54,847 nucleotides of DNA from Pseudomonadota bacterium (GCA_043821645.1 JBDRCO010000029.1:1-54847), one strand, 5' to 3'. Shown: positions 9,756 to 28,266, counted from the stretch's first letter. Program-made: numbers and translations. Notes: generated by a model not told the origin, from the letters alone.

Positions 9756-10538
9756 ATGGGCTCCTTCTTTCAGGATCGCCACGTCGTCGTCACCGGCGCC
9801 GGTTCGGGCATTGGCCGCGCCCTGGTGCAGGCCCTGAGCGCCCACGGAGCCCGCGTCGCCGCCCTCGACCTCAAGGCCGCGTCCCTGCAACCCCTGGCCC
9901 TGCTCCCGGGCGTGCTCCCGTTCACCGCCGACGTCGCCGATGGCCCGCGCATGGCCGAGGTGGCCAGGCAGGTGCACGCCGAGTTCGGGCGCGTGGACCT
10001 GGTCGTCGCCAACGCCGGTGTCGGCGGACTCAACCCGGGCTACGCCTTCTCGACGGAGATTCACCAGCGCACCGTCGACATCAACGTGATGGGACTGGTG
10101 CACAGCCTGGCGCCCTACATCCCCAAAATGGTCGAGCGCGGCGGCGGTCACCTGGTGGGCATCTCGTCGCTGGCCTCGTTTCGCGGCCTGCCCGGCGCGG
10201 GCTCCTACAGCTCGACCAAGGCCGCCCAGCGCATCCTGCTCGAGTCGCTACGCGTCGACCTCAAGCCGCGCGGCGTGGCCGTGAGCTGCATCTGCCCGGG
10301 CTTCGTCAAGACCGCCATGACCGAGCACGACGAGTTCCCGCTGCCATTCATGGTGCCCGTGGACAGGGCCGCGCAGCTCATCCTGCGCGCGATCCAACAC
10401 CGCCGGTCGCTGTACCTGTTCCCCTGGCCCATGCGCCTGCTCACCCTGTTCAACAGGCTGCTCCCCGACGCGCTCTTTGACTGGCTGCTGCCGCGCCTGA
10501 GCCGGGCCGACGGGACCAAGCAGGCGCGCATTTTCTAG
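9756..10538 (+). CDS. Short-chain dehydrogenase/reductase
   Basis: TGAGSGIG Rossmann motif, ANAG, S...YSSTK catalytic motif, CPGFVKT. AGGAGG RBS before ATG 9756. Confidence 0.93.
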   Translation: MGSFFQDRHVVVTGAGSGIGRALVQALSAHGARVAALDLKAASLQPLALLPGVLPFTADVADGPRMAEVARQVHAEFGRVDLVVANAGVGGLNPGYAFSTEIHQRTVDINVMGLVHSLAPYIPKMVERGGGHLVGISSLASFRGLPGAGSYSSTKAAQRILLESLRVDLKPRGVAVSCICPGFVKTAMTEHDEFPLPFMVPVDRAAQLILRAIQHRRSLYLFPWPMRLLTLFNRLLPDALFDWLLPRLSRADGTKQARIF

Positions 10539-10565
10539 GACTTCTGAAGCGTCCGGGGCAGCCGT

Positions 10566-10645
10566 GGTGTGGGGCTCCCGCGACGGGGCAAGCCTTCTTG
10601 TCCTCGCAAGCTGCGAAAAAAAGTCTTGCCCCTGCGCCCCACACC
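10566..10645. repeat. ~80 bp palindromic intergenic element, family B copy 1
   Basis: Nested inverted repeats GGTGTGGGGC/GCCCCACACC, GGGGCAAG/CTTGCCCC and TCGCA/TGCGA. Aligns by eye with the reverse complement of 14422-14495. Confidence 0.7.
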
Positions 10646-10685
10646 GTTCGATCTGTTCTGCCGAAACAGCGTCGCACGAGGGGTC

Positions 10686-11174
10686 ATGGAACACATCGCA
10701 GGCCTGGGCTTTCGCTGCTGCATGTACGTGCTGTTCGGGCTCACCCTCGAGGTGATCTTCGCCATGCACGGCATCGAGCGGATGCTGGGCTACACGCTGC
10801 AGCGGCGCGTGCCCTTCAGGTACCTCGAGGGCTTCACCACCGCCTACATGATCCCCCTGCACGGCCTGGGCATCCTGTTCGGCTTCGAGCTGGTACACGC
10901 GCTCATCCGCGACTGGTTCATCGGTCTGCGCTTCGTGGTGTGGGCCGTGCTCATCAGCGCCTGCGAGGCGCTGTACGGCTTGCTCCTCGACAAGCTGCTG
11001 GGCTTCTACCCCTGGGACTACTACGCGCAGTCGCGCTTCAAGGTCTTCGAGCGCGGCTACACCCTGTGGACCCTGATCCCGATGTGGGGCCTGGCCGGGC
11101 TCATGCTCGAGGTTTTTTCGGACCTGATGATCCACCTGACGCCGAAGGCGGTGGCGTTCTTGCTGGGAGCCTGA
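10686..11174 (+). CDS. Small membrane protein, putative ABC-transporter permease type (CmpB/DUF1113-like)
   Basis: Four hydrophobic segments; E..YG.LL....G..PWDY and WGLAG motifs; GAGG RBS. Confidence 0.65.
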   Translation: MEHIAGLGFRCCMYVLFGLTLEVIFAMHGIERMLGYTLQRRVPFRYLEGFTTAYMIPLHGLGILFGFELVHALIRDWFIGLRFVVWAVLISACEALYGLLLDKLLGFYPWDYYAQSRFKVFERGYTLWTLIPMWGLAGLMLEVFSDLMIHLTPKAVAFLLGA

Positions 11175-11224
11175 ATCGAGGATGCGAAATGCGGTGCGGG
11201 TGGCCGAACCAGATGGTCTCACCA

Positions 11225-11304
11225 GGAGGGGACTGGCACTGACCATTACATTTATTTTGCTAATATTTACATAACATTAAATACATATCTGTAAGGACAA
11301 AATG
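11225..11304. repeat. Inverted-repeat element family A, copy 1 (truncated: left arm plus AT-rich spacer; right arm lost after AAAATG)
   Basis: GGAGGGGACTGGCACTgACcATTACATTT at 11225-11253 differs from the consensus arm at 2 positions. The element ends with TCTG-N7-AAAATG, as copies 2 and 3 do before their right arms. Confidence 0.75.
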
Positions 11305-11406
11305 GGACCTCTATCCACACCGGGCGCGCCCGCCATCCATGTCGAGATGAAGGGGGCGGCTGGGCCACGGGCCCCGCGCCCGTCGGTCGACCTGACCGAG
11401 ATCGGC

Positions 11407-13830
11407 CTAGAAGTTCATTCCCAGGTTCAGCACGCCACGCAGCATGGACAGGGGCACGCCAGCGGCGGCCTGATAGCTCGGTCCGTTCGACACACCCGCG
11501 GCCTGATACCATTCCAGGCTGGCCTCGAGGCGGGGACGCAGCAGCGGATGCAGGGCGAACTCGACGCCGAGCGTGGTGAACAGGTAGGGATCCAGGGCCA
11601 TGGCGTCGTCGCGTGCCACGCTCAGCGCCTGCCCCGGGTAGCGCTGGTGGCTGATCTGCCAGGCCCCCGCACCCAGGTCGAGGTCGACCCGCAGCGCGTC
11701 GGCAGGGCGCAGCACCACACCCAGGGCCAGGTGGTTGCGCACCAGCTCCTGGTAGAGAATGTTGGGCGCATAGGCGCGCTCCAGCGAGCCGTGCAGGGTC
11801 ATCCATTCGAGCTCCAGAAGGCGCATCCGGAGCTGCAGCATCGGGGTGCCCGGCACGTCGGGAAAGTCCTCGAGGTTGGGCACCTGCCAGCCCACGAAGA
11901 GCACATCCTCATTGCCCGGTTTGTCCGTCCTGGGCTGAAAACCCACGCCCACGTGCGCCAGCACACTGCGGTGTCGCGGTGCCGAGAAGGAGGCGTAGCC
12001 CAGACCTGCCGCGGCGAACAGGTTCATCAAGCCGGGCAACACCTTGATGTAGGCATCGGCGACCAGACCGCCCAGCGAGCCCTCGGGCAGCCCCGCCCGG
12101 GTCAGCGCGTCGGGGGCCGCAGTGTCGACGAGCTGGCCCAGCTCCGCCGACGAGTCCACCACGTTGTGCTGGGTGTAGCGCCCCAGCCATAACGAGCCGC
12201 CGGCCTCGGCGCCCATCTCGTCAAGGAAGATCAGGAAGGCAGCCTGCAGCAGGTTGCTCTGGCGAGCGATGGTTTCGCCATACAGCCCCGCGCCCATGGG
12301 GATGGGAGCGCCCTGCAAGGACACGAAACGCCCGGGCTCCAAGCCGACCTCGGCGCGGTCGCGGAGCAACAGCCACCAGATGTCCTCGCCGTAGATCAGC
12401 TCGCCGTCGACGAAGCTGTCCAGCAGCAGCGGGTTCAGGGTCGCCTCCCGGCTGACGCCTGCGGCATCGTCCGGTCCGAACAGGGCCCGATAGTCGAGCT
12501 GCGCCTGGAGCTGAAACTGCCACTCGCTGTCGAGCACCTGCATCGCGACGCCAGGGACCAGCTGCGCCACGGCGTGCGGCTTCAGATACAGGTCGCTGCT
12601 GCCGTCGTTGCGCAGACCGCCGGCGTTGATGCGGTAGGGGTTGCTGTCCACACCCGCCATCGCCTGGAGCGAGAAGCGCGCGGGGCCCAGCTCCAGCGCC
12701 TCGGGCAGGCCAAGCTCAAGGCCGTCGTCGGTGTCGCTGTCCGTCGTGGACGACGATTCGACCTCGGCATCGGCGCCGGATTCACCCCCGACTTCGTCCT
12801 CGACCTCGGTTGTGGAGCCCTCGTCGGTCCGGTCCGGGCCGTCCTCGTCCGGGCTTGCCTCTGTCCGCGCCGGCGCTGCCGGTTGTGCGGCGCCCGCGGC
12901 AGTGGCGGGATCCCGATCCAGCACCAGCCTGTCCTTGTAGTCGCCACAGCTATCGCCGAACCACCTGGCGACCTTGACCTCGAGGTGATGGTCGGCGCCC
13001 TGGGGCTCGGCCAGGCAGAAGGCCACCTGCTCGGTCGAGCCCAGCACCGCCGAGACGACCAGCACATCGCCCAGCAGCTGCAGTTCGCCCACCGGAAAAC
13101 CTGTACTGGCGTCGAGCTTGCCCGAGGCCGAGCCGTCTTCGTCCACCACCAGGTGGGCGTCGTAGCTCACCGGTCCCCAGAAGCCCTTGCCCGTCCACAC
13201 GCCCTGCAACTTGCGGATGTCTGCCGCGGGAAGGGGGGCGCCGATGCGCAGTGGCTCGACCCCGGCGATCCCCTGGGGCTGGGGCCCGCAGCCCAGCCCG
13301 CCGAGGCAGGGTTGCAGCTCGAAGCTGGAATCCACGGGCTCGGCCGGGGGCAGAGCCCTGTCGTACCCGGAGCCGTGCGGCGCCTTCTTCTTGACCAGCC
13401 ACTCGACGGCCTCGGTCTTGTCCGCTTTGTCGGCGAGATCCAGCGCGGTGAAGCCCTCGTTGTTCTCGATGTCGAGGGGGGTATTGGGCATCAGCAGCAG
13501 CAGCGATCCGATGTGGCCTCCCTGGGCAGCGAGGTGCAACGGGGTGTTGCCCGCACGATCCTGGCGCCTGGCGTCGGCACCGCGCAGCAGCAACAGCTCC
13601 ACGATGTGAGTCTGGGCCACGGCGGAGTGCAGGGGTGTGGCGCCGCTCGCGGTGGTGGCGTGGATGTCAAAGCCGTCGTCGAGCATGCTGGCCACGACGT
13701 TCTCGTCGCCGATGATCACGGCCAGGTGAAGCAGCTCGGTCTTTTCTGCCTCGGTGTAGGCCTGCGCCTGGCCAGAAGTCAGCACGGCGCTCCCGCAGAG
13801 AATGAGCAGGGCAACTCGCGCACGCAGCAT
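11407..13830 (-). CDS. Secreted ankyrin-repeat protein fused to a probable outer-membrane beta-barrel
   Basis: Signal peptide (AQA), ankyrin repeats (GATPLHSA, GNTPLHLAA, GFTALDLA), acidic linker, then GVDSNPY and alternating beta-strands ending in C-terminal F. GGAG RBS before ATG 13830. Confidence 0.75.
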   Translation of the reverse strand: MLRARVALLILCGSAVLTSGQAQAYTEAEKTELLHLAVIIGDENVVASMLDDGFDIHATTASGATPLHSAVAQTHIVELLLLRGADARRQDRAGNTPLHLAAQGGHIGSLLLLMPNTPLDIENNEGFTALDLADKADKTEAVEWLVKKKAPHGSGYDRALPPAEPVDSSFELQPCLGGLGCGPQPQGIAGVEPLRIGAPLPAADIRKLQGVWTGKGFWGPVSYDAHLVVDEDGSASGKLDASTGFPVGELQLLGDVLVVSAVLGSTEQVAFCLAEPQGADHHLEVKVARWFGDSCGDYKDRLVLDRDPATAAGAAQPAAPARTEASPDEDGPDRTDEGSTTEVEDEVGGESGADAEVESSSTTDSDTDDGLELGLPEALELGPARFSLQAMAGVDSNPYRINAGGLRNDGSSDLYLKPHAVAQLVPGVAMQVLDSEWQFQLQAQLDYRALFGPDDAAGVSREATLNPLLLDSFVDGELIYGEDIWWLLLRDRAEVGLEPGRFVSLQGAPIPMGAGLYGETIARQSNLLQAAFLIFLDEMGAEAGGSLWLGRYTQHNVVDSSAELGQLVDTAAPDALTRAGLPEGSLGGLVADAYIKVLPGLMNLFAAAGLGYASFSAPRHRSVLAHVGVGFQPRTDKPGNEDVLFVGWQVPNLEDFPDVPGTPMLQLRMRLLELEWMTLHGSLERAYAPNILYQELVRNHLALGVVLRPADALRVDLDLGAGAWQISHQRYPGQALSVARDDAMALDPYLFTTLGVEFALHPLLRPRLEASLEWYQAAGVSNGPSYQAAAGVPLSMLRGVLNLGMNF

Positions 13831-13960
13831 CTCCGACTCCTCCGACGGCAGCAGTGTGGCCGTCACGCCAGGTGGATGAGGTGAGTGGTGCGCGCATTAT
13901 TTCACACACCGGGGGTGCGGGGCACCGCCGAGTGCCGCGACGTGTGGCGTCGCCCTGGCC

Positions 13961-14182
13961 TTACTCGCAGCGCTCCAGCCGCAGCCACTGGGCGCGCGTA
14001 CTGGCGTCGAGGGCGACGTAGAAGTCCCACTTCAGGTCGGCGCCTCGTCGACAGGAGCCCTGCTGCAGGCCACTGATGGCGTCGACCAGCCTGTAGGACA
14101 GGTCGTCGCGCAGGGACATGGCCGCGGCCAGGTCGGGCGGGAGGCAGTAGCTCTGCGCCACCGCCACCGGCCACAGGTTGTG
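13961..14182 (-). pseudogene. Orphan 3' fragment (last 73 codons plus stop) of an alpha-amylase homologous to 24240-26315
   Basis: Ungapped manual alignment to 24240-24461: about 173/222 nt and 57/73 aa identical. Similarity stops at the left end of repeat A copy 2. Confidence 0.9.
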
Positions 14183-14199
14183 GGGAGGGGTCTTGTGGG

Positions 14200-14339
14200 G
14201 AGGGGTCTGGCACTTACAATTACATTTATATTCTGCACGATTTCTTTTAGTTATGACGATTAGATCATCCCATTTCGATACCGCAAACAGACGCGAAGTC
14301 TGCCACAAGAAAATGTAATTGTAAGTGCCAGTCCCCCTC
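14200..14339. repeat. Inverted-repeat element family A, copy 2 (REPIN/MITE-like, 140 bp)
   Basis: Left arm GAGGGGTCTGGCACTTACAATTACATTT (14200-14227), right arm AAATGTAATTGTAAGTGCCAGTCCCCCTC (14311-14339), AT-rich 83 bp spacer. Confidence 0.92.
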
Positions 14340-14421
14340 GCGCACCTTCGCGATTCTCCATCGCCTCATCCCCGGATAGGGTTGCAGCAGAGCACTACCG
14401 AATCGCTTTGATGGAGCTTGA

Positions 14422-14495
14422 TGTGGGGGCCCAGGAAAGGCTTTTTCCAAGCTCGCGAGGACAAAAAGACTCGCCGGTGAAGGCGTGGCCCCACA
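14422..14495. repeat. ~75 bp palindromic intergenic element, family B copy 2 (inverted relative to 10566-10645)
   Basis: TGTGGGG...CCCCACA ends. The reverse-complement core CTTTTTGTCCTCGCGAGCTTGGAAAAAG matches CTTCTTGTCCTCGCAAGCTGCGAAAAAAAG at ~10594. Confidence 0.7.
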
Positions 14496-14793
14496 ACAGG
14501 GTCGAATCTTAGCGATTTCGTATGACAGGCCTGGTTGAAACCACAAGGCAACTCGCCTGCACTCCGAATTTCCCGTGGCGCCAAGATGTTCGGCCCTGCT
14601 CAGGGGTCCCCGGCCACAGGGCGGAACTGCGCGATCGCTGCCGCGCGTTGAAGATGCACCCCGCAGACCGTCGCGGGGATTTCAACGAGCGGGGGACCAT
14701 CGTCACGCGAATCACGCAACGGCCAGAGTGGCGCAGCCGACACTGCGCGATGGCTCACGCCCGAGGGACTCTCGACGGGGAGCTGGAGGTTTT

Positions 14794-15135
14794 ATGAAGA
14801 TCCAGGGGTCCGGTTCTGCGTTGCATCTTCCACGGGAAGTGGGAGATGCGTCCCAGGTCCAGGGCCTGCCCACCGGCACCCAGCCGCAGCAGACTCCCAT
14901 CACACCCGAGAACTACCTGGACAAGTTCGAGGGTGTCAAGGCTGGCCAGGCCGGCTCGCTGGCCCCGTCAGTACAGCTGCCCGAGCTCAGCTTCGACAAG
15001 CTCAGCGACCTGAAGAACGAGGTGCAGCAAAAGCTGCAGGAGACCCACCGCGGCAAGCGCGGCGGCGGCAAGAAGGGCGTGGCCGACGACGACGAGGATG
15101 CCGACGGCGACGGGATCCCCGACAATCAGCAGTAA
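14794..15135 (+). CDS. Small hypothetical protein (113 aa) with acidic C-terminal DADGDGIPD motif
   Basis: GGAGG RBS followed by ATG at 14794 and strong GC3 codon bias. DxDxDG-type Ca-binding-like tail. Confidence 0.75.
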   Translation: MKIQGSGSALHLPREVGDASQVQGLPTGTQPQQTPITPENYLDKFEGVKAGQAGSLAPSVQLPELSFDKLSDLKNEVQQKLQETHRGKRGGGKKGVADDDEDADGDGIPDNQQ

Positions 15136-15310
15136 CGCGCGCGCGATGATCTGACATGCGACGCCTCGCTTGGGGGCCGAACCAGCTCCCTGCGCGCTCG
15201 CCTACACGGCCGGGCCCACGGTGGCCCCCGATAGCCTCAAAAATCAGTGACTGTCCCCGGGCCCGGAGGCCGTGTTTCTCGGGCTGTGGCGGTCCGTGCA
15301 CGGGCGGGCC

Positions 15311-15355
15311 TTGACGTGGACCAGGCTGTCGTGTATATGTTGAATTAATATTCAA
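15311..15355 (+). promoter_or_regulatory. Putative sigma70 promoter and TetR operator
   Basis: TTGACG-N17-TATATG (15311-15339), followed by the palindrome TTGAAT-N4-ATTCAA (15340-15355) 13 bp before the TetR start codon. Confidence 0.65.
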
Positions 15356-15368
15356 TGATATATCGACC

Positions 15369-16004
15369 ATGCCGAGAAAACAGAGTACCAACGAGCAGAT
15401 GCGGGATCAGCGGCGTGCTCAGATCCTGAGCGCCTCGCTGCAGCTCTTTGCCAGCCGCGGCCTGGCGGCGACGCGCATCTGCGATATCGCCGAGGCGGTG
15501 CCCATGGCCCAGGGCCTGGTCTACCACTACTTCTCCTGCAAGGAGGAGATCTTCACGGCGCTGATCCGCCACGCCTTCGAGCGCCTGAATGCCGCCTGCC
15601 AGGAACTCGAGGCGCTGCAGGCGCCGGCGCGGGACAAGGTCGACATGGCCCTGCGTGCCCTGCTGCAAGGCTTTGCCGAGGGCGAGGATGCGGCGCGCGC
15701 ACACATGCTCATCGCCCAGGCCACAGCCTCCACGGCGATCCCCGACGAGGCGCGGGCCATCCTCGCTCGCGACAGTGCGCTGCCCTACGAGGTGATGGCC
15801 AGGATCCTGGCCCAGGGTCAGCGCGAGGGCACGATTCGCGAGGCGGACGTGCAGCAACTGGCCCTGGTGTTCTGGACCACGATCAAGGGGTTGGCCATGC
15901 ACAGGGCAGCCCATGGCCAGGCGGCGGTGATGCCGGAGGCCGAGATCCTGATGGCGCTGTTCGACGCGCCGTTGTCGACCCAGGGCGCGGCCCGGGGAGC
16001 GTGA
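15369..16004 (+). CDS. TetR/AcrR family transcriptional regulator
   Basis: N-terminal HTH: IL.ASLQLFASRGLAATRICDIAEAV.MAQGLVYHYF.CKEEIF. Confidence 0.93.
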   Translation: MPRKQSTNEQMRDQRRAQILSASLQLFASRGLAATRICDIAEAVPMAQGLVYHYFSCKEEIFTALIRHAFERLNAACQELEALQAPARDKVDMALRALLQGFAEGEDAARAHMLIAQATASTAIPDEARAILARDSALPYEVMARILAQGQREGTIREADVQQLALVFWTTIKGLAMHRAAHGQAAVMPEAEILMALFDAPLSTQGAARGA

Positions 16005-16972
16005 TCATGCCTAGCCTGCGCAGCCGACTGTTTGTCTTCGCACTCAGGTTCCGCCTGTGGTTGAAGAGCCGCCGCGGTGGCCCCGAGGTCATCACCGAGG
16101 ACACCTCCATCGCCGAGCTGCGGGCGCGGGTCGAGAAGAGCGCCGGCATGTTTGGGAAGCTGGCGCCGGGTTTCACGATCGAGCCGGTGGACATCGAGGG
16201 TCTGAACGCGGAGTGGCTGCGTCCGCCCGCAGCCGCTGGCGACAAGGCCCTGCTGTACTTTCACGGCGGCGGTCTGGTAGTGGGCTCGGCGCGCTCGCAC
16301 CGCAACATCGTGCAGAAGTTCGCGGGGGCCTGCGGCGTGCCGGCGCTGGTGTTCGACTACGGTCTGGCGCCGGAGCAGCCCTTTCCGCGGGCACTGGAGG
16401 ATTCGCTGCGCGCCTACCGCCACCTGCTCGACGGCGGTCTTGCACCTCAGGACATCGTGTTCATGGGCGACTCGGGCGGTGGAAACCTGTGCTTGAGCAT
16501 CCTGCTCGCCTGCCAGCGCGACGGCCTGCCTCTACCCGCGGCCGTGGTCGCCCTGTCGCCGTGGACGGACCTGACCAACAGCGGCGCCAGCTACCAGGAG
16601 AACCTCGAGCGCGACCACCTGACCTGGCGCAACTCGGCTGCAGTGTTCGCGCGCTACTACGCCGGCGAGCACGCCCTGGACGATCCCCTGGTGTCGCCAC
16701 TGCATGGCGACCTGCGCGGTCTGCCGCCACTGCTGCTGTTCGCGGGCTCGGACGAGCTGATGCGAGACGACAGCGTGCGCTTCGCTGACAAGGCCAGGGC
16801 CGCGGGCGTCGACGTCACCTTGCATCTGGGCGAGGGCCTGTTTCACTGCTACCCGGCCTGCGCCGGGCTGTTTCCCGAGGCCACGCAGGCGCTGCAGGTC
16901 ATCGCGCGCTTCGTGCAAGGCTACTTGGGTCTTGAGTCGGCGTCCGAACCACGGAAGCGCAGCGCAGCCTGA
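16001..16972 (+). CDS. Alpha/beta hydrolase, HSL-type esterase/lipase
   Basis: HGGG oxyanion motif, GDSGG nucleophile motif, D and H (LFHC). GTGA overlap with the TetR gene. Confidence 0.92.
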   Translation: MIMPSLRSRLFVFALRFRLWLKSRRGGPEVITEDTSIAELRARVEKSAGMFGKLAPGFTIEPVDIEGLNAEWLRPPAAAGDKALLYFHGGGLVVGSARSHRNIVQKFAGACGVPALVFDYGLAPEQPFPRALEDSLRAYRHLLDGGLAPQDIVFMGDSGGGNLCLSILLACQRDGLPLPAAVVALSPWTDLTNSGASYQENLERDHLTWRNSAAVFARYYAGEHALDDPLVSPLHGDLRGLPPLLLFAGSDELMRDDSVRFADKARAAGVDVTLHLGEGLFHCYPACAGLFPEATQALQVIARFVQGYLGLESASEPRKRSAA

Positions 16973-17027
16973 GCCCACGCAGCGGCGGAACGCGCATCAC
17001 CGGTGGCCCCTTCCGGGTGGTCGGCCC

Positions 17028-17169
17028 GGAGGGGTCTGGCACTTACTATTACATTTTATTATTTAACTATTACGAACCATTAAGACGTATTTCTATTATC
17101 CATCGCGCGCTTCTGGGCAGGCGATAAATCTGCTTCCAGAAAATGTAATTGTAAGTGCCAGTCCCCTCC
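17028..17169. repeat. Inverted-repeat element family A, copy 3 (142 bp)
   Basis: 30 bp arms at 17028-17057 and 17140-17169 with 2 mismatches; AT-rich 82 bp spacer. Confidence 0.92.
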
Positions 17170-17268
17170 TGTTGCTCCTGTTGTCTCTCCTCTCCCCCCT
17201 CGATCTGTCTGCGTCCTGCAAGCACTTTTCCTTGGCGAAGAGGAGTAGGGAGTCTGCCTGGGTTAGTT

Positions 17269-17312
17269 TTATCCGGATAATATTGACATTATAATCTACC
17301 CGGGTATATTAT
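17269..17312 (+). promoter_or_regulatory. Putative sigma70 promoter with two related palindromic operators upstream of the DUF2239 gene
   Basis: TTATCCGGATAA (17269-17280) and TACCCGGGTA (17297-17306) sit either side of TTGACA (17283-17288); TATTAT at 17307-17312. Confidence 0.65.
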
Positions 17313-17339
17313 AGAAGACCCTCAAAGGTGGAGTCAATC

Positions 17340-17960
17340 ATGCTGGATACATTAGTAACAACAGGTTGTTACGCACTATTTTGCGGGACTGAACGGATCT
17401 GCACTGGGGCCATCGGTGAGGTGGTACGCGCGGCAAAAAATTGCGTGGATAGCGGGACGACGGAGCGCGTCGCCCTGTTCGACGACAGCTCGGGCCGTGC
17501 TCTCGATATCGACTATCGCGGCACCGTCGACGAGGTGCTCGCGCGCCTGCGCGACCACCCCATGTTGCCGCAGGCCGAGCGTGAAGCGCTGGCACCGAGG
17601 GGACCTGGACGGCCCCGCCTCGGCGTGGTGGCGCGCGAGGTCACCTTGCTGCCGCGGCACTGGGACTGGCTCGGCGAACAACCCGGAGGAGCCTCGGTGG
17701 CGCTGCGCAAGCTGGTTGACATCGCCAGGCGCGAGCACGCCGCGCGCGACCTGGCGCGCAGGGCGCAGGAGGCCACGCATCGTTTCATGTGGGACATGGC
17801 AGGCAACCTGCCCCGCTTCGAGGAGGTCTCGCGCGCGTTCTATGCCCGGGATTATGCCCGCCTCGACGAGCTGCTTGCACAGTGGCCCCTGGGCATCGCC
17901 GAGCACACGCGTCACCTGGTCAAGCAACAGCGCGACCTCGAGAAGCTGGCCGCGGGCTGA
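17340..17960 (+). CDS. DUF2239 family protein
   Basis: Family-typical FDD.SGR.LDID.RG, GRPRLGVVAREVTLLPRHWDWL.EQPGGASVALRKLV and AGNLP.FEE motifs; GGAG RBS. Confidence 0.88.
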   Translation: MLDTLVTTGCYALFCGTERICTGAIGEVVRAAKNCVDSGTTERVALFDDSSGRALDIDYRGTVDEVLARLRDHPMLPQAEREALAPRGPGRPRLGVVAREVTLLPRHWDWLGEQPGGASVALRKLVDIARREHAARDLARRAQEATHRFMWDMAGNLPRFEEVSRAFYARDYARLDELLAQWPLGIAEHTRHLVKQQRDLEKLAAG

Positions 17961-18076
17961 GTTCTCGTCAGACCGCGTGGAACAGGTGCGCAGACCTCTG
18001 GCGAGGCTGAGCGCTCGAGGGAGCCCGTCGTGGATCCTCGACCGGCGGAGCTGCCATCTGACGGCGCTGGCGCGAG

Positions 18077-19006
18077 CTACTCGAAGTTACCGTGCCCGGT
18101 CAAAAGAGCGCCGGCGATGCCCGAGGCGGGCCACGCGAAGCTGTCGCTGACGACCTGACCATCGATACCGGTGAGACGGAGGGTGAACGCGCCCGCCCCG
18201 AAACCGCTCGCGTCGTTGAGCGTGCCGTCGCTGCCGCGGACCAACGCGGTGTAGCTCGCGTGGTTGGCGCTCAACACCTCGACCTTGTGCAGGGGCACGC
18301 GCGCGTTGCGCACCCACAGGCTGGTCCACCACTCGCTCGAGCCAGTCTGGAACTCGTACAGCAGGGGCCCGGTGTCGGGACAGCGTGCAAACTGCCAGCT
18401 CATGTGCCTCGGGTATTCGCCGCTGTCGAGCACAGCGTAGGCCTCGGGACTGGTGTCGATGCTGTTGGTGGTGGTCACGCCGAAGGTGACGACGCGCAGA
18501 ACGGCGGACTTACCCATGGCGGTGACGATGTGGACGCAGGTGTCGCAGGCGTCCGCCACGTCGGGGATGCCGTTCCATAGCCCGGCCAGCAAGGTGCCCT
18601 GGGCTTGCTGGATCGCGGGCGCGTAGCCCGAACCCGGCGCGCAGGCGTTGTGCCACACCGACTCCTGGTAGTCGACAGGGCCAAGATGGAATTCGCCTCC
18701 CTGGTAGGTCGGTCCGTAGGTGACGACGGTTTCGGCCGCATCCGCGGTCGCGTCGACGGGCTGCGCCGTGTCAGGAAGGGTCCGGGTGTCCGCCGCGCTG
18801 GCGTCGACGGTCTGCACCGTGTCGGGAAGGGTCCGGGTATCCGTCGCGCTGCTGCGATCCTGGCCGGTGTCAACGTGAACGGCGGTGTCCGGTCGGGCGG
18901 CGGCATCGCTGTGGGCTCCCGAATCGGGCTCGCTGTCGTCGACAGACGGGCACGCCGCAACCAACACCCCGCAGGTCACTGCGAGCATCACACAGAGTCC
19001 GCGCAT
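18077..19006 (-). CDS. Expansin-like (EXLX1-type) lipoprotein
   Basis: Lipobox VAAC and D/T-rich linker with a duplicated DTRTLPDT. DPBB-like domain, then a CBM63-like domain (GSSEWWTSLWVRNARVPLHKVEV, FTLRLTGIDGQ). Confidence 0.72.
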   Translation of the reverse strand: MRGLCVMLAVTCGVLVAACPSVDDSEPDSGAHSDAAARPDTAVHVDTGQDRSSATDTRTLPDTVQTVDASAADTRTLPDTAQPVDATADAAETVVTYGPTYQGGEFHLGPVDYQESVWHNACAPGSGYAPAIQQAQGTLLAGLWNGIPDVADACDTCVHIVTAMGKSAVLRVVTFGVTTTNSIDTSPEAYAVLDSGEYPRHMSWQFARCPDTGPLLYEFQTGSSEWWTSLWVRNARVPLHKVEVLSANHASYTALVRGSDGTLNDASGFGAGAFTLRLTGIDGQVVSDSFAWPASGIAGALLTGHGNFE

Positions 19007-19134
19007 GCCATGCTCCCCCTCCCGTATGAGTTCCACTCCAGCCGTCGGTGGATCTTACTCGCGGTTGGTGCCCGGTAAACACGATGTTATGCGCGTCGTG
19101 ACTCGAGGAAACCCCCGGCGGCGCTCGAGATCGT

Positions 19135-19374
19135 TCAGCCCAGAGCCGCTTTGTTCGCGGCAGCGCGGGAGGTGGCGGTCCGAAGCTGCTTGAGAAAGAG
19201 GTCCAGTGGCACACCGTGGACACGCGCGGCCATCCCCACCGTGAGGAATCGGGTCACAAGGCGGCGAACGCTGAAGGGTCCCACACGCCTCACGCCAAAG
19301 CTCTCCATCACCTCGGCGACGTCGCCATACGCGTCGAGGATCTTGATGACCCGGGTGTCCTTGGTGATGTCCAC
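19135..19374 (-). CDS. Small DUF1858-like protein
   Basis: ITKDTRV..IL..Y.DV.EV..SFG...TV..AARVHGV.LD..LKQL pattern; GGAGG RBS before GTG. Confidence 0.7.
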   Translation of the reverse strand: MDITKDTRVIKILDAYGDVAEVMESFGVRRVGPFSVRRLVTRFLTVGMAARVHGVPLDLFLKQLRTATSRAAANKAALG

Positions 19375-19513
19375 GCTGCCTCCGCGCCGCGAACGGTCCC
19401 GCTGTCGGGTGACCGTGCACAGGCTACAGGACTATCCAGCCCTCCCCTGCTCACGGCGCAGCCCTGGGTGGCGGAGGTCTGTCACCCGCAACGTCGCGGA
19501 TGGCAGGTCGTGT

Positions 19514-21544
19514 TCACTTCTCGGTGAAGGCGTACTCGTGCTGGGCGTCGCGGACGATGAGCGTGCGCTTGTCGCCACTGCCCACGACGAACTCGAAACC
19601 CGCGATGCCGGGAGCCGTGGTCACGAAGGACAGCGTGCCGTCGGGATTTTTCCGTGATGCGACCTCGCTGCGCCACTCACCAAAATCGAAAACCGTCGCG
19701 CCCTTTTTCTGGCTCACCGCGATCTCGCCGAGCGCGTCGCTGGTGTAGCGGCTGGCGAGCTTTGCGGCCTCGGCGGGATCTGCGGGCACGGTGAGCAGCT
19801 TGCGCTCGGCAGCCAGCTGGTCGAAGTAGCTCCTGGCCTTGGAGGCCACGAGCGCGTCGGCCTCCGGCACACCGTCGAACAAGATCTCGAGCAGCTTGCG
19901 CTGGAATGGCCACAGCAGGAGCCAGCCCGGATCGCTGTTGGTCAGCACCACCGCGCCGACGCCGTGCTCGGGCAGCCACATCATGTCGGAATAGAAGCCG
20001 ATCATGGCACCGCCGTGGTGGACCACCGGCACGCCATAGGTGGTGTCCACCTCGAGTCCCATGCCGTAGGTCGTGTTGCTGCCTATGGTCACCTGGGGCG
20101 CGCGCCGCGCCAGCAAGGTATCCCGCTCGATGTAGCGCGTGCCGTCGGGCAGCACTCCCTCGGCCAGCTCCATGGCCACGTATGCAAGCAGGTCATGGAT
20201 GTTGCTCCAGGCGGCACCGGCGGGCCGTAGGGGGAGGATGGAGTAGTTGAGCTCCATCACCGCGGCCGCTGGCTTGCCGTCGATGTCAGGAGCATGCGGC
20301 ATGGCGTGGTTGCCGCGCAGCACCCGTGCATAGTCGAAGCTGGTCGACTTCATGCCGAGCGGGCCGAACACGCGTGTCTGCATGGCCTTGTCGTAGGCAG
20401 CTCCGAGTTCGAGCTCGGGGAACGCGACGTGCCCGCCGACGAACCCACCCGCACCGGCGAGGGGGTTGGAGTACTGGAACATTTCGCCGAAGCCACTGGT
20501 TGGCTGCATGGTCGCCAGCGTCGCCAGCGCGCCGTCGGGGGTCACCCCCTTGAACTCGAACAACCACTCCATGTCCTGGCGCGGCAATCCGGTGCAGGCG
20601 CAGATCAGGTGCTTGACCTGGACCTGGCTGGTGGTGGCGTCGTCGCCAAGCTTGAACGACGGCAGCAGGCTGGTCACCGGCGTGTCCCAGGTCAGCTTCT
20701 TCTCATCGACCAGCTTGCCCAGCATGAGCGTGGTCATGGCCTTGGTGTTCGATGCGACCATGAACAGCGTCTCGGCGTCGACCTTCTGCTTTCCCCCGAG
20801 CTGACGCACGCCAAAGCCATCGGCGAACACCACCTTGCCAGCCTGGATCAGGCCCACCGCGACCCCGGGTACACCGAGCTGCTTCATCGCAGTCTGGACG
20901 AAACCGTTGAAGGCCGCGATTCGCGCGGCATCCAGGGGCTGCGCTGATTTCCCGGCAAAGGACTCGCGGCTGTGCCCCTTGGGCAGCAGCTGATCGAAGA
21001 TCAGAGCGACCTGGGCCAGGCGTTTTTCACCGACCGCCTGGGTCATGTCATAGATGGCCACGGTCCACACCTCGTTGGCCCGCCGCACGTAGACACCGAC
21101 GTCGCGCTTCTCGTTGGGTGAGGTCTGGTAGCTGTACGCGCTGCGATCGGTCCAGCCGTCCCGGTCCGGGGACGGGCTGACCACCTTGAGCGGCCACGTG
21201 ACGTCGGGCTTGTAAACCTTCCAGGCCGCGGCCACCGCTGCGTCCGCACTGCCAGCCCGCAGATCGATGAGGGCGATGCGAGAGTCTCCCTCGGGAGCTT
21301 CGAGGATGGTAGACGGGCCGCGAACGGTGATGCTCCAGCCAGCCGGCGCGATGAAGCCGTTGCCCTCGGTGGTGGTCCTCGGCGCGTCGCTGGTCAGGTG
21401 CTCGACGACGGGTTCAGGTGCCGGGGTGGGCGATTCGACGGAGGTCGAGGTCTGCGCTGGTGTCTGAGGTGTCGTCGTCTTGCAGGTGGCGAGAACGCAC
21501 GCACCGGTGATCACCGCTGCTGCGACCGAAAGGAGTCGACGCAT
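19514..21544 (-). CDS. Serine hydrolase, beta-lactamase class C/PBP-like family, lipoprotein
   Basis: SxxK (ASNTK), YxN (YSN) and HHGG motifs; signal with Cys; GGAGG before ATG 21544. Confidence 0.9.
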   Translation of the reverse strand: MRRLLSVAAAVITGACVLATCKTTTPQTPAQTSTSVESPTPAPEPVVEHLTSDAPRTTTEGNGFIAPAGWSITVRGPSTILEAPEGDSRIALIDLRAGSADAAVAAAWKVYKPDVTWPLKVVSPSPDRDGWTDRSAYSYQTSPNEKRDVGVYVRRANEVWTVAIYDMTQAVGEKRLAQVALIFDQLLPKGHSRESFAGKSAQPLDAARIAAFNGFVQTAMKQLGVPGVAVGLIQAGKVVFADGFGVRQLGGKQKVDAETLFMVASNTKAMTTLMLGKLVDEKKLTWDTPVTSLLPSFKLGDDATTSQVQVKHLICACTGLPRQDMEWLFEFKGVTPDGALATLATMQPTSGFGEMFQYSNPLAGAGGFVGGHVAFPELELGAAYDKAMQTRVFGPLGMKSTSFDYARVLRGNHAMPHAPDIDGKPAAAVMELNYSILPLRPAGAAWSNIHDLLAYVAMELAEGVLPDGTRYIERDTLLARRAPQVTIGSNTTYGMGLEVDTTYGVPVVHHGGAMIGFYSDMMWLPEHGVGAVVLTNSDPGWLLLWPFQRKLLEILFDGVPEADALVASKARSYFDQLAAERKLLTVPADPAEAAKLASRYTSDALGEIAVSQKKGATVFDFGEWRSEVASRKNPDGTLSFVTTAPGIAGFEFVVGSGDKRTLIVRDAQHEYAFTEK

Positions 21545-21771
21545 GGCAGGCCCTCCGTGTTGAGTGGCTGGATGGACCGCTCCAGAGAGCACTTGTGACC
21601 CTTCGAAGCAAGACCGGTGAACTCCCCGCGGTGTTGGGGGTCGCGCCCCGCGAGACACGACTGTTCAGAGCGTAAATGCGCACGGATTCACGGGCTGTTG
21701 CTCGCGGATTGAGAAGAAGACGAAACGAGATGAAACAAAACAAGTTGAGAGGAGATGGGATGGATCGTAGC

Positions 21772-21906
21772 AGGGGACTGGCACTTACAATTACATTTTT
21801 TTGTATCATGTTAGCCATATGTTAGCATGATAATTGGAAGTAATTCCGCTCTCAATTTAGATCGCATTTTTTCTGCTTAATATGTAATTGTAAGTGCCAG
21901 TCCCCT
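21772..21906. repeat. Inverted-repeat element family A, copy 4 (135 bp)
   Basis: Perfect 25 bp arms: AGGGGACTGGCACTTACAATTACAT (21772-21796) and ATGTAATTGTAAGTGCCAGTCCCCT (21882-21906); AT-rich spacer. Confidence 0.93.
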
Positions 21907-22134
21907 ATTTGTCCCTATTTTTAATCTTCATGTGCCCCCTATGCCCCCCCTTCCAGCGCTCATCCATGTCCCTACTACCCCGCTTTCCTTCCACGCCCTC
22001 CCGGAGCCTTCGAGCGCGCATATCCGGCATATGTTGTCCCGAAAGGCCTGGAGCTGAGATGGCCCCCCGGCGGATCCGCTCAATTCCCGGTTCGCGGGTT
22101 TGCTTCTCGAAGCGACTGCGGGCACATTGGAAGG

Positions 22135-24144
22135 ATGCACCCAGCGACCAGATCTGCAGCGCGAGCATACAGGGTGCTCCTTGCGGTGGTGGTCGTGGCA
22201 AGCGTGGCCGGCTGCGCAAGGTCCGGTTTCTGGACGCCTCATCCTCGCACTGCGGACGCCGGCGCGGATGCGGGATGCACGGGCCTGACCAGGAGCCAGG
22301 TACTCGGCGATCTGGTGCCCCCGAGCCTGCATGTGATCTCGCCGGGTGCGGCGACGGCGGTGAGCGGCACCATCGAGGTCTGCGCCGAGGCCACGGACAG
22401 CGTTCACGTCGTGGGCGTGCGCTTCTGGGTAGACGGTGCGCAGCTCGGCGCCGAGGATTCGGTGGCGCCTTACTGCCACAGCCTGGACAGCCGTCGGCTG
22501 GCCGATGGCGAGCATCAGCTGATCGCGCGAGCCCGGGACGGCGCCACCAACACGACGGCGGCGCAGCAGGTCTTCACCATCGACAACGGCCGCGTGCCTG
22601 GGGGCGACATCCACTTTGCCTGCGATTGCGCCGCAGGTGCCGACTCCGATTGCGTCCCGGGCGCGGACGCAGCCGATGGACTGGCGCCCCAGCGCGCCGT
22701 GCAGAGCACCGCAGCGGCGCAACAGGTGCTGGCCAACCTCCACTGCGGTGACGAGCTGCGATTCTGTTTGGGGGGTGCGTTCGAGCCCTCCGCCAGCTAC
22801 GTGGTCCCCTCTGTGGATTGCTCGGGAACACCCGTTCACCTCGGTGCCTACAGGGCCGCGTGGGCCAGTGGCGACGAGAAGCGGCCGCGGCTGGTGCTCA
22901 GCGGCAACAACGACGGGCTGGTGATCCATGGCAGCAGCGGCGTGGTTCGAGGACTGGTGGTCGAAGACCTGCATCTGATCTGTCCTGACTGTACCCGGCG
23001 CGGCTCGGGCTGGGGACTGGCGGTGACCGGCGCCGCGGTGCGCGACGTCGTGCTGCAGCGGCTCGAGGTGGAGGGCTTTGATTACGGGCTGTACCTGTCC
23101 GCTGCGGCCAACATCCTGGTCGAGTACGTGTCCTTTCATCATAGCCACTCGGCCGGCATCGTTGCCGGGGGGCCAGGTCTCCGTCTTCGCCACAACCTGC
23201 TGGAGTACAACGGCTGCATCGGCGCGGTGGACGACGACAGCTGCGCCGATGACTGGAGTCTGTTCGTCGGCTACTCCTTTGACGGCAGCGTGCTCGAGAT
23301 CATCGGCAACGAGATCACGCGCACCGCCGTGGACAGCCAGGGTCTGTGCCGCGGCGTGGCCCTGCGGATCAACGGAGGCAGCTACGGCGCGCGCGTCGAG
23401 GGCAATTACCTTCACGAGCCCCAGGACGGGATCCGCGAGGGTTGCAGCGGCATCGAGGCCCTGGCCAACCCGGACGGCATCCTGGAGTTCTGCGTCGGCT
23501 GCTCGATCAGCGGCAACCGCATCGAGAACCTCGCCGCAGGCATCGTGGTCAGCGCGCACGACGGCAGCCAGGTCGCGAGCAACACCGTCGCCCTGCCGCC
23601 CAACGCCGCGAGCTGGACCTCCTGCGCGGGCATCACCGTGCTGCAGCGCCTCGAAGAAGCGGACGCGGAGACCTCGGCCATCGCGGTGGTCAACAACTCC
23701 ATCGCCATCGGTCGCGACGATCCAGGCTGTACCGGGGTGCGCGTCGCTGCCGAGGGTGTCGATCACGTGGTGGCCAACAACGCGGTGCAATACACAGGTC
23801 TGGCCGACAGCTTCGACTGCTTCCGCTACGGCGACCCGGCCGTGCTGTTGCGTGCGGACCACAACCTGTGCGAGCTGTCACCCGGCGCAGGCGGATCCTG
23901 GGCCGCGGTCGGCACCTCCCGCTATCCCCTGGACGCCTGGCAAGCACGGGGCCACGACGCGGCCTCGACGGCGGAGGCGGTCGGCTTCGCAGGTGCCTTT
24001 GCGCCGCTGTACGACCTGTCACCACTCAGCTGCGATCAGGGCATGCGCGACCACGGCAGCAACCTCGACTGCCCTGACCTCGACGTCACCGGGGCGACCA
24101 GGCCGCAGGGCAGCGCCTGCGACATCGGCGCGCACGAGCGCTGA
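22135..24144 (+). CDS. Lipoprotein with Ig-like (Big) domain and right-handed parallel beta-helix
   Basis: Lipobox VAGC; V.FWVDG.....DS.APY...LDS..L.DG.H.L.A.A.D Ig-like motif; N-ladder beta-helix repeats; C-terminal D..G..RP.G..CDIGA.E motif. Confidence 0.78.
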   Translation: MHPATRSAARAYRVLLAVVVVASVAGCARSGFWTPHPRTADAGADAGCTGLTRSQVLGDLVPPSLHVISPGAATAVSGTIEVCAEATDSVHVVGVRFWVDGAQLGAEDSVAPYCHSLDSRRLADGEHQLIARARDGATNTTAAQQVFTIDNGRVPGGDIHFACDCAAGADSDCVPGADAADGLAPQRAVQSTAAAQQVLANLHCGDELRFCLGGAFEPSASYVVPSVDCSGTPVHLGAYRAAWASGDEKRPRLVLSGNNDGLVIHGSSGVVRGLVVEDLHLICPDCTRRGSGWGLAVTGAAVRDVVLQRLEVEGFDYGLYLSAAANILVEYVSFHHSHSAGIVAGGPGLRLRHNLLEYNGCIGAVDDDSCADDWSLFVGYSFDGSVLEIIGNEITRTAVDSQGLCRGVALRINGGSYGARVEGNYLHEPQDGIREGCSGIEALANPDGILEFCVGCSISGNRIENLAAGIVVSAHDGSQVASNTVALPPNAASWTSCAGITVLQRLEEADAETSAIAVVNNSIAIGRDDPGCTGVRVAAEGVDHVVANNAVQYTGLADSFDCFRYGDPAVLLRADHNLCELSPGAGGSWAAVGTSRYPLDAWQARGHDAASTAEAVGFAGAFAPLYDLSPLSCDQGMRDHGSNLDCPDLDVTGATRPQGSACDIGAHER

Positions 24145-24239
24145 GCCACCGGTCCGAGACCCCGGGGCTTCTGCTTTGCACCAACGGACTGCTGAGGAGG
24201 ATCCGGGATGATGCCTTCACGCGCTCGGCCGGACGTCAC

Positions 24240-26315: not shown

Positions 26316-26329
26316 GATCTCCCTCCTTG

Positions 26330-26349
26330 GTAACTCTTTAGAGAGTTAC
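26330..26349. promoter_or_regulatory. Perfect inverted repeat, candidate operator upstream of the amylase gene
   Basis: GTAACTCT-TTAG-AGAGTTAC just upstream of the RBS; TTGACG on the minus strand at 26360-26365. Confidence 0.5.
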
Positions 26350-26748
26350 TAACGCCTTGCGTCAAATAGCAAGTGCTGTCCGACATTGGCCTACATTACG
26401 ACTGGATCCTGTATAATATGTTTAAAAACAAATACTTAATATTGATCTGCACGACCTCGCTGCGATCTTGGGCTGCCTTGGGAGCGAAAATTGAAAGGTC
26501 CTTGACTGCTTGAACCCGCACCGAGCTTCGAGGTCGAGCCACACACACCGACGGCAGCCGCGCTGTCGCAACCGGCCGTACGCCCTGCTCCGAGCGCAGG
26601 GAGCCGCTGTCGAAGCGCGGCCAGGATACGGCAGCGGCGGCGCGAATGATGACGTCGGCGAGTCCTCTTCACCGGTCCGTGATCTCCCTATGGCGCACGG
26701 TGCGGAGTGTGGTTCAATGGCGGCCCGCAAACTCCAGGTCCCGATGCC

Positions 26749-28266
26749 ATGCCTCCGACCTCCCCCAGCGACGATCCCCGGCACACCTTCGCCATCAGCG
26801 ACATTCACCTGTCGGATGCGCAGGTCGTGGATCCAGCCCGACCGCTGTGGAAACGCTTCAAGGGGCGCGACCTGTTCATCGACGACAGCCTGGCCCGCTG
26901 CCTGGCGCACCTGCGCGAACTGGCCGGGGCCGGAGAGCCCATCGAGCTGGTCCTCAATGGCGACATCTTCGACTTCGACTCGGTGATGGCCCTGCCCCGG
27001 TCGAGGGCCTTCCCGGTGAACTGGCTCGAGAGGCTGCGCGGTCTGGACGCCGAGCAGGACAAGTCGGTGTTCAAGATCCAGGTGATCCTGGGCGACCACC
27101 CGGCCTTCGTCACCGCGCTGCGCGAGTTCCTGAACGACGGTCACCAGGTGGCTTTCGTCATCGGCAATCACGACATGGAACTGCACTGGCCCGAAGTGCA
27201 GGCCGAGATCCGTCGCGCCCTCGACCTGACGACGGGGGCCGGTGAACGGCTGCGCTTCTGCGAGTGGTTCACCCTGAGCGGGGGCGACACGCTGCTGGAG
27301 CACGGCAACCAGTACGACAGCTACTGCGCGGCCACCGATCCCGTGCACCCGCGCATCCGCTGGCGCGGGATCGAGCGCATGCGGCTGCCTTTCGGCAACC
27401 TGGCGGGAAAACTGATGCTCAACGGCATGGGGCTGTTCAATCCTCACGTCGAGAGCAGCTTCATCCGCTCCCTGCCCGAGTACGCGGTCTTCTTCTGGCG
27501 CTACATGCTGCGAATACAGCCCTTGCTGCCCTGGACCTGGTTCTGGACCGCCTTGCTGACCCTGGTGATCACGGTGCGCGAGGGCTTGGCGCCTACGGTT
27601 CGCGACCCCTTCAGCCTCGACGAACAGGTGGAGGGGATCGCCCTGCGCGCGCGTGCCACTCCCAGGCTGGTGCGTGCCCTGCCGGCCCTGCGGGTGCGGC
27701 CGGCTTACTACAATCCGCTCAGCATTGCCCGCGAGCTGTGGCTGGACCGCGCGCTGCTGCTGGCCCTGGTTCTGTTCGGGACCTTTCAACTGTTCTCCAT
27801 CCTCAACGTCTTCGTCACCATGCCCATCTGGTGGTGGCTGGTGTTCTTCGTGCTGCTGCTGCCCCTGTTCATCCTGTACGCCCGCGGTGTCCACTCCGAC
27901 GTGGACAACTACGAGCGCGGCCTTCGTCGTTTGCTGCCGGAGGTGGCGCGGCTTGCCGGCGTCACGCGCCTGGTGATGGGCCACACCCACAAGGAGAAGC
28001 ACACCGAGATCGAGGGCGTCGAGCTGCTCAACTCAGGCACCTGGTCGCCGGCCTACCACGACGTGGAGTGCACCCGACCCTTCGGCCGTACCTGCTTCGT
28101 GTGGCTGCACCCCCAGGGCGAGGGTTCCGGTCGTGTCGCCGAGCTGCGGCAGTGGCAGGATCCCGGCTCCCAGGTGATCCCGCGCGACACAAAGGGAGCC
28201 CAGCGCCCCTCGCCCATCGTCGAGAAATTCGCGCGCATCACGGACAAGTTCAAGAGGGTGGAGTGA
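26749..28266 (+). CDS. Membrane-associated calcineurin-like metallophosphoesterase
   Basis: SDIH, NGDIFD, GNHD, EHG and GHTH motifs; hydrophobic TM block between motifs IV and V. Confidence 0.85.
   Translation: MPPTSPSDDPRHTFAISDIHLSDAQVVDPARPLWKRFKGRDLFIDDSLARCLAHLRELAGAGEPIELVLNGDIFDFDSVMALPRSRAFPVNWLERLRGLDAEQDKSVFKIQVILGDHPAFVTALREFLNDGHQVAFVIGNHDMELHWPEVQAEIRRALDLTTGAGERLRFCEWFTLSGGDTLLEHGNQYDSYCAATDPVHPRIRWRGIERMRLPFGNLAGKLMLNGMGLFNPHVESSFIRSLPEYAVFFWRYMLRIQPLLPWTWFWTALLTLVITVREGLAPTVRDPFSLDEQVEGIALRARATPRLVRALPALRVRPAYYNPLSIARELWLDRALLLALVLFGTFQLFSILNVFVTMPIWWWLVFFVLLLPLFILYARGVHSDVDNYERGLRRLLPEVARLAGVTRLVMGHTHKEKHTEIEGVELLNSGTWSPAYHDVECTRPFGRTCFVWLHPQGEGSGRVAELRQWQDPGSQVIPRDTKGAQRPSPIVEKFARITDKFKRVE

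Follow-up and report, generated by a model that had tools for sequence, protein, structure and literature searches.

Elements such as e14 or phage 21 in the icd gene of Escherichia coli, and islands in tRNA genes, supply the occupied gene with a replacement 3' end, and the displaced end is left as a pseudogene. Homology-facilitated illegitimate recombination in bacteria was reportedly described by de Vries and Wackernagel, and REP sequences are said to have been recognized in 1990 by Shyamala, Schneider and Ames as the join-points of chromosomal duplications in Salmonella. The arm of a REP sequence carries a short palindrome of its own and a conserved head tetranucleotide, with GTAG and CGTC classes. 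In REPINs, inverted REP arms enclose a variable spacer, the whole element forms a hairpin, and a single transposase gene, the RAYT, is flanked by the same repeat, according to published accounts (PMC3337134, PMC5581495).

The locus described here lies in a stretch of 54,847 bases, hereafter the window, which corresponds to the entire contig C29; the metagenome bin to which C29 belongs comprises 140 contigs and 7.07 Mb (94.7% complete, 3.95% contamination). The locus contains a real, recent pseudogene stub of a GH13 (alpha-amylase family) gene at the terminus of a REPIN-type repeat, and represents a further case of a type of event already known; no new kind of mobile element or integration system is revealed. 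As in the icd prophages and the tRNA islands, there is an intact gene, an intervening block and, oriented like the intact gene, a displaced 3' end that has diverged and carries many synonymous differences. Unlike in those systems, the block is devoid of recombinase, phage or conjugation genes, and one of its borders is the terminus of a host repeat. As at the join-points of Salmonella, a small palindromic repeat is found exactly at a rearrangement joint, here with a truncated gene end adjoining it; in contrast to them, the phylum and the repeat family are different ones, and a stub occurs at 1 of 23 repeat termini. The locus provides a clean, dated case of a gene cut at zero offset by a REPIN-type terminus in a Myxococcota-like host.

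The amylase stub and its joint with the repeat

Bases 13961-14182 (- strand) translate as HNLW...RLERCE*, the stop codon being 13961-13963, and align without gaps and on the same strand with bases 24240-24461, which are the last 73 codons and the stop of the intact resident GH13 gene (24240-26315, - strand, 691 codons; Pfam Alpha-amylase PF00128, 43.7 bits against a cutoff of 22). The identity amounts to 173 of 222 nucleotides and 57 of 73 residues, in agreement with the value of about 78% given in the original prediction. The local alignment score of the two tails is 124, against 11.0 ± 1.6 in 300 shuffles, none of which scored as high, and in a search of the genome the stub is recovered as a match of 73 codons with 78% identity and an E value of 3.6e-33. 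The longest run of identity between the stub and the resident tail is 21 nt, and an identical run of 12 nt (14171-14182) is located at the inner boundary of the stub.

The homology to the intact gene sets in at the stop codon and has its last base at 14182 (...CCACAGGTTGTG). The 200 nt downstream of the stop score 11 against the matching part of the intact locus (shuffles, 10.6); on the other side, 14183-14336 and 14337-14636 score 6 and 11 against the codons upstream of 24461, which is the level of the shuffles, so that amylase homology does not continue past 14340. When the whole amylase was compared with the rest of the window by a loose tblastn search, the best E value was 0.36, so residues 1-618 of a second copy were not found there; in the remainder of the genome there is no other close piece of amylase, and the only GH13 genes, on contigs C37 and C20, are distant. 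The sole open frame across the stub begins at a TTG within the repeat, and a promoter scan of 13700-14600 gave no promoter-like site and one weak terminator-like site. The stub is a gene remnant (pseudogene) of the GH13 alpha-amylase family that has lost the first ~618 codons and from which no functional product is possible; in an annotation it should be labelled as a pseudogene fragment.

From 14183 onwards, the sequence GGGAGGGGTCT is the outer terminus of a dispersed repeat, element A, as judged by the presence of the same bases at its other copies. The end of the stub at 14182 and the terminus of the repeat at 14183 abut without a spare base, and the proposed coincidence of the end of homology with the end of the element is exact. 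The joint is spanned by a perfect 15-nt tandem duplication at 14179-14208 (TGTGGGGAGGGGTCT twice, units 14179-14193 and 14194-14208), which runs from the stub (TGTG) into the repeat terminus; because its unit consists of four amylase bases and eleven repeat bases, the duplication arose at or after the formation of the joint. Perfect or near-perfect tandem duplications of 9-15 nt are present at 7 of the 23 element A termini, compared with 23 (0.46%) of 5000 45-mers drawn at random from the genome, and terminal tandem duplication is a trait of the element A family. These duplications may result from slippage on GGGG motifs or be a by-product of the action of a transposase. Further examples are found at 17170-17195 of the window and at C5:45585-45621.

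Since the copy of element A at the joint has no near-identical source copy in the genome, the arrangement is explained by an old resident repeat joined to a fresh stub, and not by a new insertion of the repeat into the gene. The flanks of all the element A copies have nothing in common, hence no partner copy can be named. When the flank peptides of the other termini were compared with the genome no gene stub appeared, so that one terminus of 23 is concerned, and beyond it a general gene-cutting habit of element A is unsupported. A flank on contig C53 that had been considered as a second stub was rejected, given that it belongs to a full-length paralogue pair.

To the right of this copy of element A, and separated from it by 59 unique bases, lies a second, unrelated dispersed intergenic repeat, B2 (14396-14531), with copies of 84-91% identity on at least 9 other contigs (blastn). 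B2 and a further repeat, B1 (10563-10655), are related families of about 95-135 nt that flank, in inverted orientation, the module formed by the stub and the ankyrin-repeat gene next to it; B1 has about 7 copies at 88-93% identity and B2 at least 15 at 84-91%.

The joint is present in independently assembled contigs. In run X1, a contig of 3,861 nt covers 10624-14484 with 14 differences and no gaps, so that the ankyrin gene and the stub are taken in together with the complete repeat and a further 148 nt; the X1 contigs have a depth of 9 to the left of the joint and of 9-11 to its right. The joint also lies in a 151-nt contig of X4, a run of another study, which matches 14087-14237 with 3 differences. 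Pieces of 100% identity from either side of the junction are present in runs X2 and X3. This evidence consists of contigs, not of raw reads, X1 may be the source sample, and the parts of the window that are uncovered in X2-X4 carry no evidential meaning. Contigs of two studies thus bridge the junction, and the view that the repeat is tied to a real breakpoint stands, with the break at zero offset from the repeat terminus and equal depths on the two sides of the suspected chimera point at ~14180.

Element A and its putative transposase

Element A is about 135 nt long and occurs in about 11-12 copies, with 23 arms in the genome. Copy 2 (14183-14336), which adjoins the stub, is complete, with arms at 14202-14227 and 14311-14336 and an AT-rich spacer of ~83 nt. 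Copies 3 (17027-17170) and 4 (21769-21905) are complete as well, and copy 1 (11224-11305) is a half copy that has the left arm and part of the spacer and is devoid of the right arm. Each of the three complete copies of the window folds as a single long hairpin (-30.7 kcal/mol and z -6.6 for copy 2, z -7.5 for copy 3 and z -10.0 for copy 4), and the half copy shows no hairpin fold (z +1.0). The arm motif occurs 23 times genome-wide at up to three mismatches (reversed control, 0), mostly as inverted pairs ~120 nt apart, on contigs C5, C9, C29, C53, C112 and C118, and is absent from 400 other genomes of the phylum (0/400). The arms are conserved, and the spacers resemble one another about as little as shuffled sequences do (38-54 matches; shuffles, 45 ± 3.5), with the exception of a recent pair on C5 that shares 82 of 84 positions. 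The members of this pair (C5:45615-45750 and C5:49846-49981), the only copies with near-identical spacers, lie at a distance of 4.2 kb from each other, which points to a duplication or transposition that took place locally and recently. Four of the ~11-12 copies of this 7-Mb genome are gathered within 10.7 kb (window 10.5-22 kb), between small groups of unrelated accessory-type genes.

On contig C32, two arms at 2407 (+) and 3467 (-), inverted and 1,060 nt apart, enclose an ORF of 302 aa on the - strand (L019:1619-2527; C32:2400-3492 with the flanking arms), which encodes a Y1 (HUH) transposase. Over 26 nt, the arms of copies 2-4 are identical to the arms beside this gene. The ORF scores 33.5 bits with Pfam Y1_Tnp (cutoff 23) and 63.8 bits with the NCBIfam model of REP-associated tyrosine transposases (REP_Tyr_transpos, NF047646), which is under its cutoff of 80. 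Its HUH region aligns to structures of ISDra2-type TnpA, and the E. coli RAYT structure is not among the matches in solved structures. The gene is single-copy in the genome, where three other Y1 genes reach no more than 34% identity to it. The C-terminal ~170 residues of the protein match no family.

Because of its inverted arms, variable spacer and hairpin, and of the single transposase gene flanked by the same arms, element A was identified as a REPIN-like hairpin repeat and the putative non-autonomous partner of a single-copy RAYT-like (IS200/RAYT-like) Y1 transposase. Annotations should list "element A" under this description and refer to contig C32 for its transposase. The likeness to the REP/REPIN and RAYT systems of Pseudomonas fluorescens SBW25 and E. 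coli includes the two inverted arms of ~26 nt with a poorly conserved spacer of ~83 nt, the dispersed and intergenic copies that each form one hairpin, and the single-copy Y1 HUH transposase gene placed between the same arms in inverted orientation. Element A differs from these systems in its low copy number (~11 elements, 23 arms); in its arm, GGGGACTGGCACTTACAATTACATTT, which by eye has no internal REP palindrome and no GTAG or CGTC head; in the long C-terminal extension of the 302-aa transposase and its score of 63.8 against the RAYT cutoff of 80; in the Myxococcota-like host lineage; and in that one of its copies is joined to a gene stub. A limited literature search returned no description of REPIN-type repeats in Myxococcota, which is not to be taken as a claim of absence, and the literature searched held no relevant report on REP-mediated deletions.

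Selective history and relatives of the two gene ends

The 49 nucleotide differences between the stub and the resident tail are distributed as 15, 7 and 27 over codon positions 1, 2 and 3, and dS is 0.81, dN 0.14 and dN/dS 0.17 (Nei-Gojobori, own script), which bears out the earlier remark on many synonymous changes. Given these values of dS and dN/dS, the two tails belong to functional genes separated for a long time, and they diverged under purifying selection within working genes and not by the decay of a recent copy. Conservation was evaluated on 120 homologue tails, the resident tail included: the stub deviates at none of the 19 columns conserved at ≥90% and at none of the 23 conserved at ≥80%. 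Since every strongly conserved residue has been kept, the stub was cut out of a working gene recently, relative to the 22% divergence. Of 119 comparisons with the other homologues, 90 place the resident tail nearer and 15 the stub, with 14 ties, which amounts to a slight excess of change in the stub.

Among 261 homologues of the resident GH13 protein (P0002), the closest is P0003, with 80% identity overall. The tails of the three sequences are in a three-way tie: 78% between stub and resident, 79.5% between stub and P0003, and 82% between resident and P0003. Considering all homologue pairs, tails are usually below bodies in identity (72.8 ± 8% for bodies at 75-80%); the body of P0003 is 78.7% identical to the resident gene, and neither tail is out of place beside P0003. 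In the three-way alignment, 7 residue changes are unique to the stub, 5 to the resident tail and 4 to P0003, and they are interleaved along the sequence. Because the three tails are equidistant and their unique changes interleaved, there is no basis for regarding either tail as foreign, and the alignment shows no mosaic. The phylogeny of 3' ends that had been proposed as a check was built with 121 tails, and the tree has no supported branch around the stub.

In a search of 5.8 billion clustered proteins, the best tails for the stub were those of P0003 (79%), of the resident protein P0002 itself (78%) and of P0112 (77%), with none closer; the best match in JGI metagenome contigs was 69%, and no donor or empty-site allele was found. 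The body of P0112 is 59% identical to P0002, and its tail is 75-77% identical to the stub, above the maximum of 72.6% among 3,305 homologue pairs with bodies at 55-60%. A tail swap in P0112 was considered, and sliding windows without a step at codon 619 led to no conclusion.

The family is single-copy in 16 of the 16 other genomes that carry the amylase (the two matches of genome G410 are the two halves of one gene, at contig ends), so that the long retention of a paralogue would be out of the ordinary. Runs X3 and X1 contain contigs that match the amylase (24676-26159) and the beta-lactamase-family gene of the interval (19785-21244) at ~80% identity; organisms with ~80% identity in the amylase and in one interval gene thus occur in runs in which this organism is also present. 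Other joints were seen in X3 (13135 to 24535 and 23976 to 13607) and in X1 (14494 to 25193); where the length of the shorter side is listed, it is 21-24 nt (likeness setting, 80%). Those of X3 link places near the ankyrin gene to the surroundings of the amylase or of the beta-helix gene on contigs of another organism (depth ~7-8), and may be noise or a different gene order of a relative.

At E ≤ 1e-20, no amylase was detected in any of 40 relatives. A genome of the same family (G001, 82% complete) and two of the same class have homologues of 31-38% identity on short contigs, of no use for synteny. It had been suggested that relatives might have the amylase directly followed by the ankyrin gene: this order was observed at none of 16 genome loci and none of 4 metagenome loci. 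The result is of little weight, because these homologues are 57-69% identical and their 20 loci share no neighbour with the window, save a distant melibiase-like gene in L040.

The ankyrin-repeat gene (11407-13866, - strand) follows the stub after 94 nt, in the same orientation, and is an ORF of 819 codons (807 aa in the database), with Pfam Ank_2/Ank/Ank_4 matches at residues ~75-161. In a search of 1.84 billion representatives, its C-terminal 620 aa matched, apart from the protein itself, a single relative (P0242, 47% identity), and the 400 other genomes of the phylum contain none; a search with the protein was swamped by ankyrin repeats. By eye, the protein has a signal peptide and a C-terminal Phe, which hint at an outer-membrane barrel. 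Since the half copy of element A (11224-11305) adjoins the 3' end of this gene, the 2.9-kb module of ankyrin gene and stub is bounded on both sides by disturbed or complete repeats.

The interval from 14183 to 24461 (10.3 kb) encodes, according to Pfam, a TetR regulator, a hydrolase, a DUF2239 protein, a beta-lactamase-family protein and a beta-helix protein. No integrase, resolvase or transposase domain was detected in any of its 28 ORFs (38 ORFs scanned from 7.4 to 28.3 kb; Pfam, E up to 0.1). GC and GC3 give no island signal: the GC content of the window is within that of the genome (0.672 ± 0.022), and GC3 is 0.92 for the stub, 0.88 for the resident tail and 0.83-0.88 for most genes of the block, with two lower values of 0.73 and 0.78.

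A proposed recombination between two versions of the locus and its rivals

With a probability of about one half, we attribute the present layout to one recombination between two diverged versions of the amylase locus, with an illegitimate joint at the end of the repeat. The second GH13 version, working until recently and differing from the resident gene at ~22% of the bases, would have come from a sister lineage, and the outer end of the old resident REPIN-like repeat would have served as the DNA end of the illegitimate joint. Y1 (HUH) enzymes of the RAYT-like type nick single-stranded hairpin ends and would supply the break. The incomer would be either the 10.3-kb block 14183-24461 with its working tail, or the ankyrin gene with the stub. 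A single-locus event fits because the stub and the resident tail are 10.06 kb apart, on the same strand and in downstream order, and an exchange between lineages is favoured because two long-separated functional genes are found in a single-copy family. Like homology-facilitated illegitimate recombination, a homologous anchor together with an illegitimate joint would yield the present layout in a single event; in contrast to it, the anchor would here be ~22% diverged and the joint is at a repeat terminus, not at a random microhomology. Against an exchange stand the failure to find a donor or an empty-site allele among 5.8 billion proteins and the JGI contigs, the inefficiency of homologous recombination at 22% divergence, with a longest identical run of 21 nt, and a composition without island signal. 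Of the original prediction, which offered the entry of the block into the amylase gene or the import of the ankyrin gene with the amylase tail, the between-lineage exchange is favoured (dS 0.81, single copy in 16/16), and the form of an integrative element is not, as no recombinase was found in 28 ORFs.

As to what came in, we tentatively regard as possible that the ankyrin gene and the stub are the incomer, taken from the same locus of a sister lineage in which the amylase would immediately precede the ankyrin gene. This DNA would have taken the place of the region to the left of the repeat, the donor fragment breaking off after 222 nt of its amylase gene and being attached to the repeat terminus. 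The interval and its host-type repeats would then stay native, shared synteny would account for the proximity of the two tails, and the incoming gene would be the near-orphan ankyrin-barrel gene (one relative in 1.84 billion representatives, 0/400 genomes), in a 2.9-kb module that is edged by a second disturbed repeat, the half copy at 11224-11305. A slight leaning to this direction also comes from the three old repeat copies inside the interval, whose arms are of the host type. No donor was found, however, the GC3 of the ankyrin gene is an ordinary 0.87, and the left crossover is not locatable.

An explanation that requires no foreign DNA is that the genome carried two amylases ~8-10 kb apart as old paralogues, the second directly upstream of the ankyrin gene, and that a recent deletion starting from the repeat terminus took the first 618 codons of this second amylase. 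With one deletion this is the simplest mechanism; the same strand and the proximity suit an old tandem duplication, dN/dS of 0.17 suits two functional copies, the composition is native throughout, and the repeat copies of the interval carry arms of the host type. It is a serious rival, which we nevertheless judge rather unlikely: a second copy is present in 0 of the 16 other genomes and at 0 of the 16 loci within the fetched flanks, both copies would have to have escaped gene conversion for so long that the synonymous sites came near saturation (dS 0.81), and the stub is no closer to the resident tail (78%) than to P0003 of another organism (79.5%).

It is unlikely that the incomer was instead the interval 14183-24461, which would have entered by a crossover in the gene body and an illegitimate joint at the repeat end, bringing a working tail and displacing the native one, now the stub. 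This direction has the classic geometry of an intact gene, a block, a displaced 3' end in the same orientation and an old downstream gene, with the 12-nt identical run 14171-14182 at the boundary and accessory-type genes in the interval. The three repeat copies of the block, however, have old, diverged spacers and arms identical over 26 nt to those of the host transposase gene, so that an outside block would imply a donor with the same repeat family. There is furthermore no compositional shift, the resident tail is 82% identical to P0003, no worse than the body at 78.7%, although tails are usually lower, and the order amylase-ankyrin gene is found at 0 of 20 related loci.

A recent rearrangement thus took an old repeat end as its joint, and this terminus with its 15-nt stutter provides a concrete substrate for asking whether RAYT-like Y1 transposases break chromosomes. 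A broader proposal, which we consider doubtful and improbable, is that the ends of element A are active recombination ends, at which the Y1 enzyme would nick the hairpin terminus and the free end would join nearby or incoming DNA, so that genes next to such repeats would be cut, captured and exchanged between lineages. If this were true, stubs accompanied by the terminal stutter duplication would be its signature, and RAYT-type systems would be a general gene-shuffling device and not passive passengers.

A classic integrative element with its own site-specific recombinase, which would target the amylase 3' end and carry a replacement end, is very unlikely, and the comparison of the block with such elements in the original prediction is not upheld. 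A direct repeat of the target 3' end is present at both borders (13961-14182 and 24240-24461), with the 12-nt identical run at the inner one; against this, no recombinase domain was found in the 28 interval ORFs, for which reason we regard such an element as unsupported, the composition is ordinary, Rfam gave no match and no tRNA-like feature in 10000-27000, there is no match in plasmid records, and one border is a host repeat terminus and not an att arm. An assembly chimera of two organisms or loci joined at the repeat is hardly credible: although the source is a metagenome bin of 140 contigs with 3.95% contamination and sister-lineage contigs of ~80% identity are present in the same runs, the 3,861-nt contig of X1 and the 151-nt contig of X4 cross the joint, the depths match, and the sequence shared at the joint is only 15 nt, too short for a graph mis-join to be likely.

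Elsewhere in the window, 47231-49088 holds a coding array of 8 diverged repeats with a period of ~147-159 nt and the motifs AMAYD...GG and WEWDG, which has the look of a Kelch or beta-propeller-type protein.
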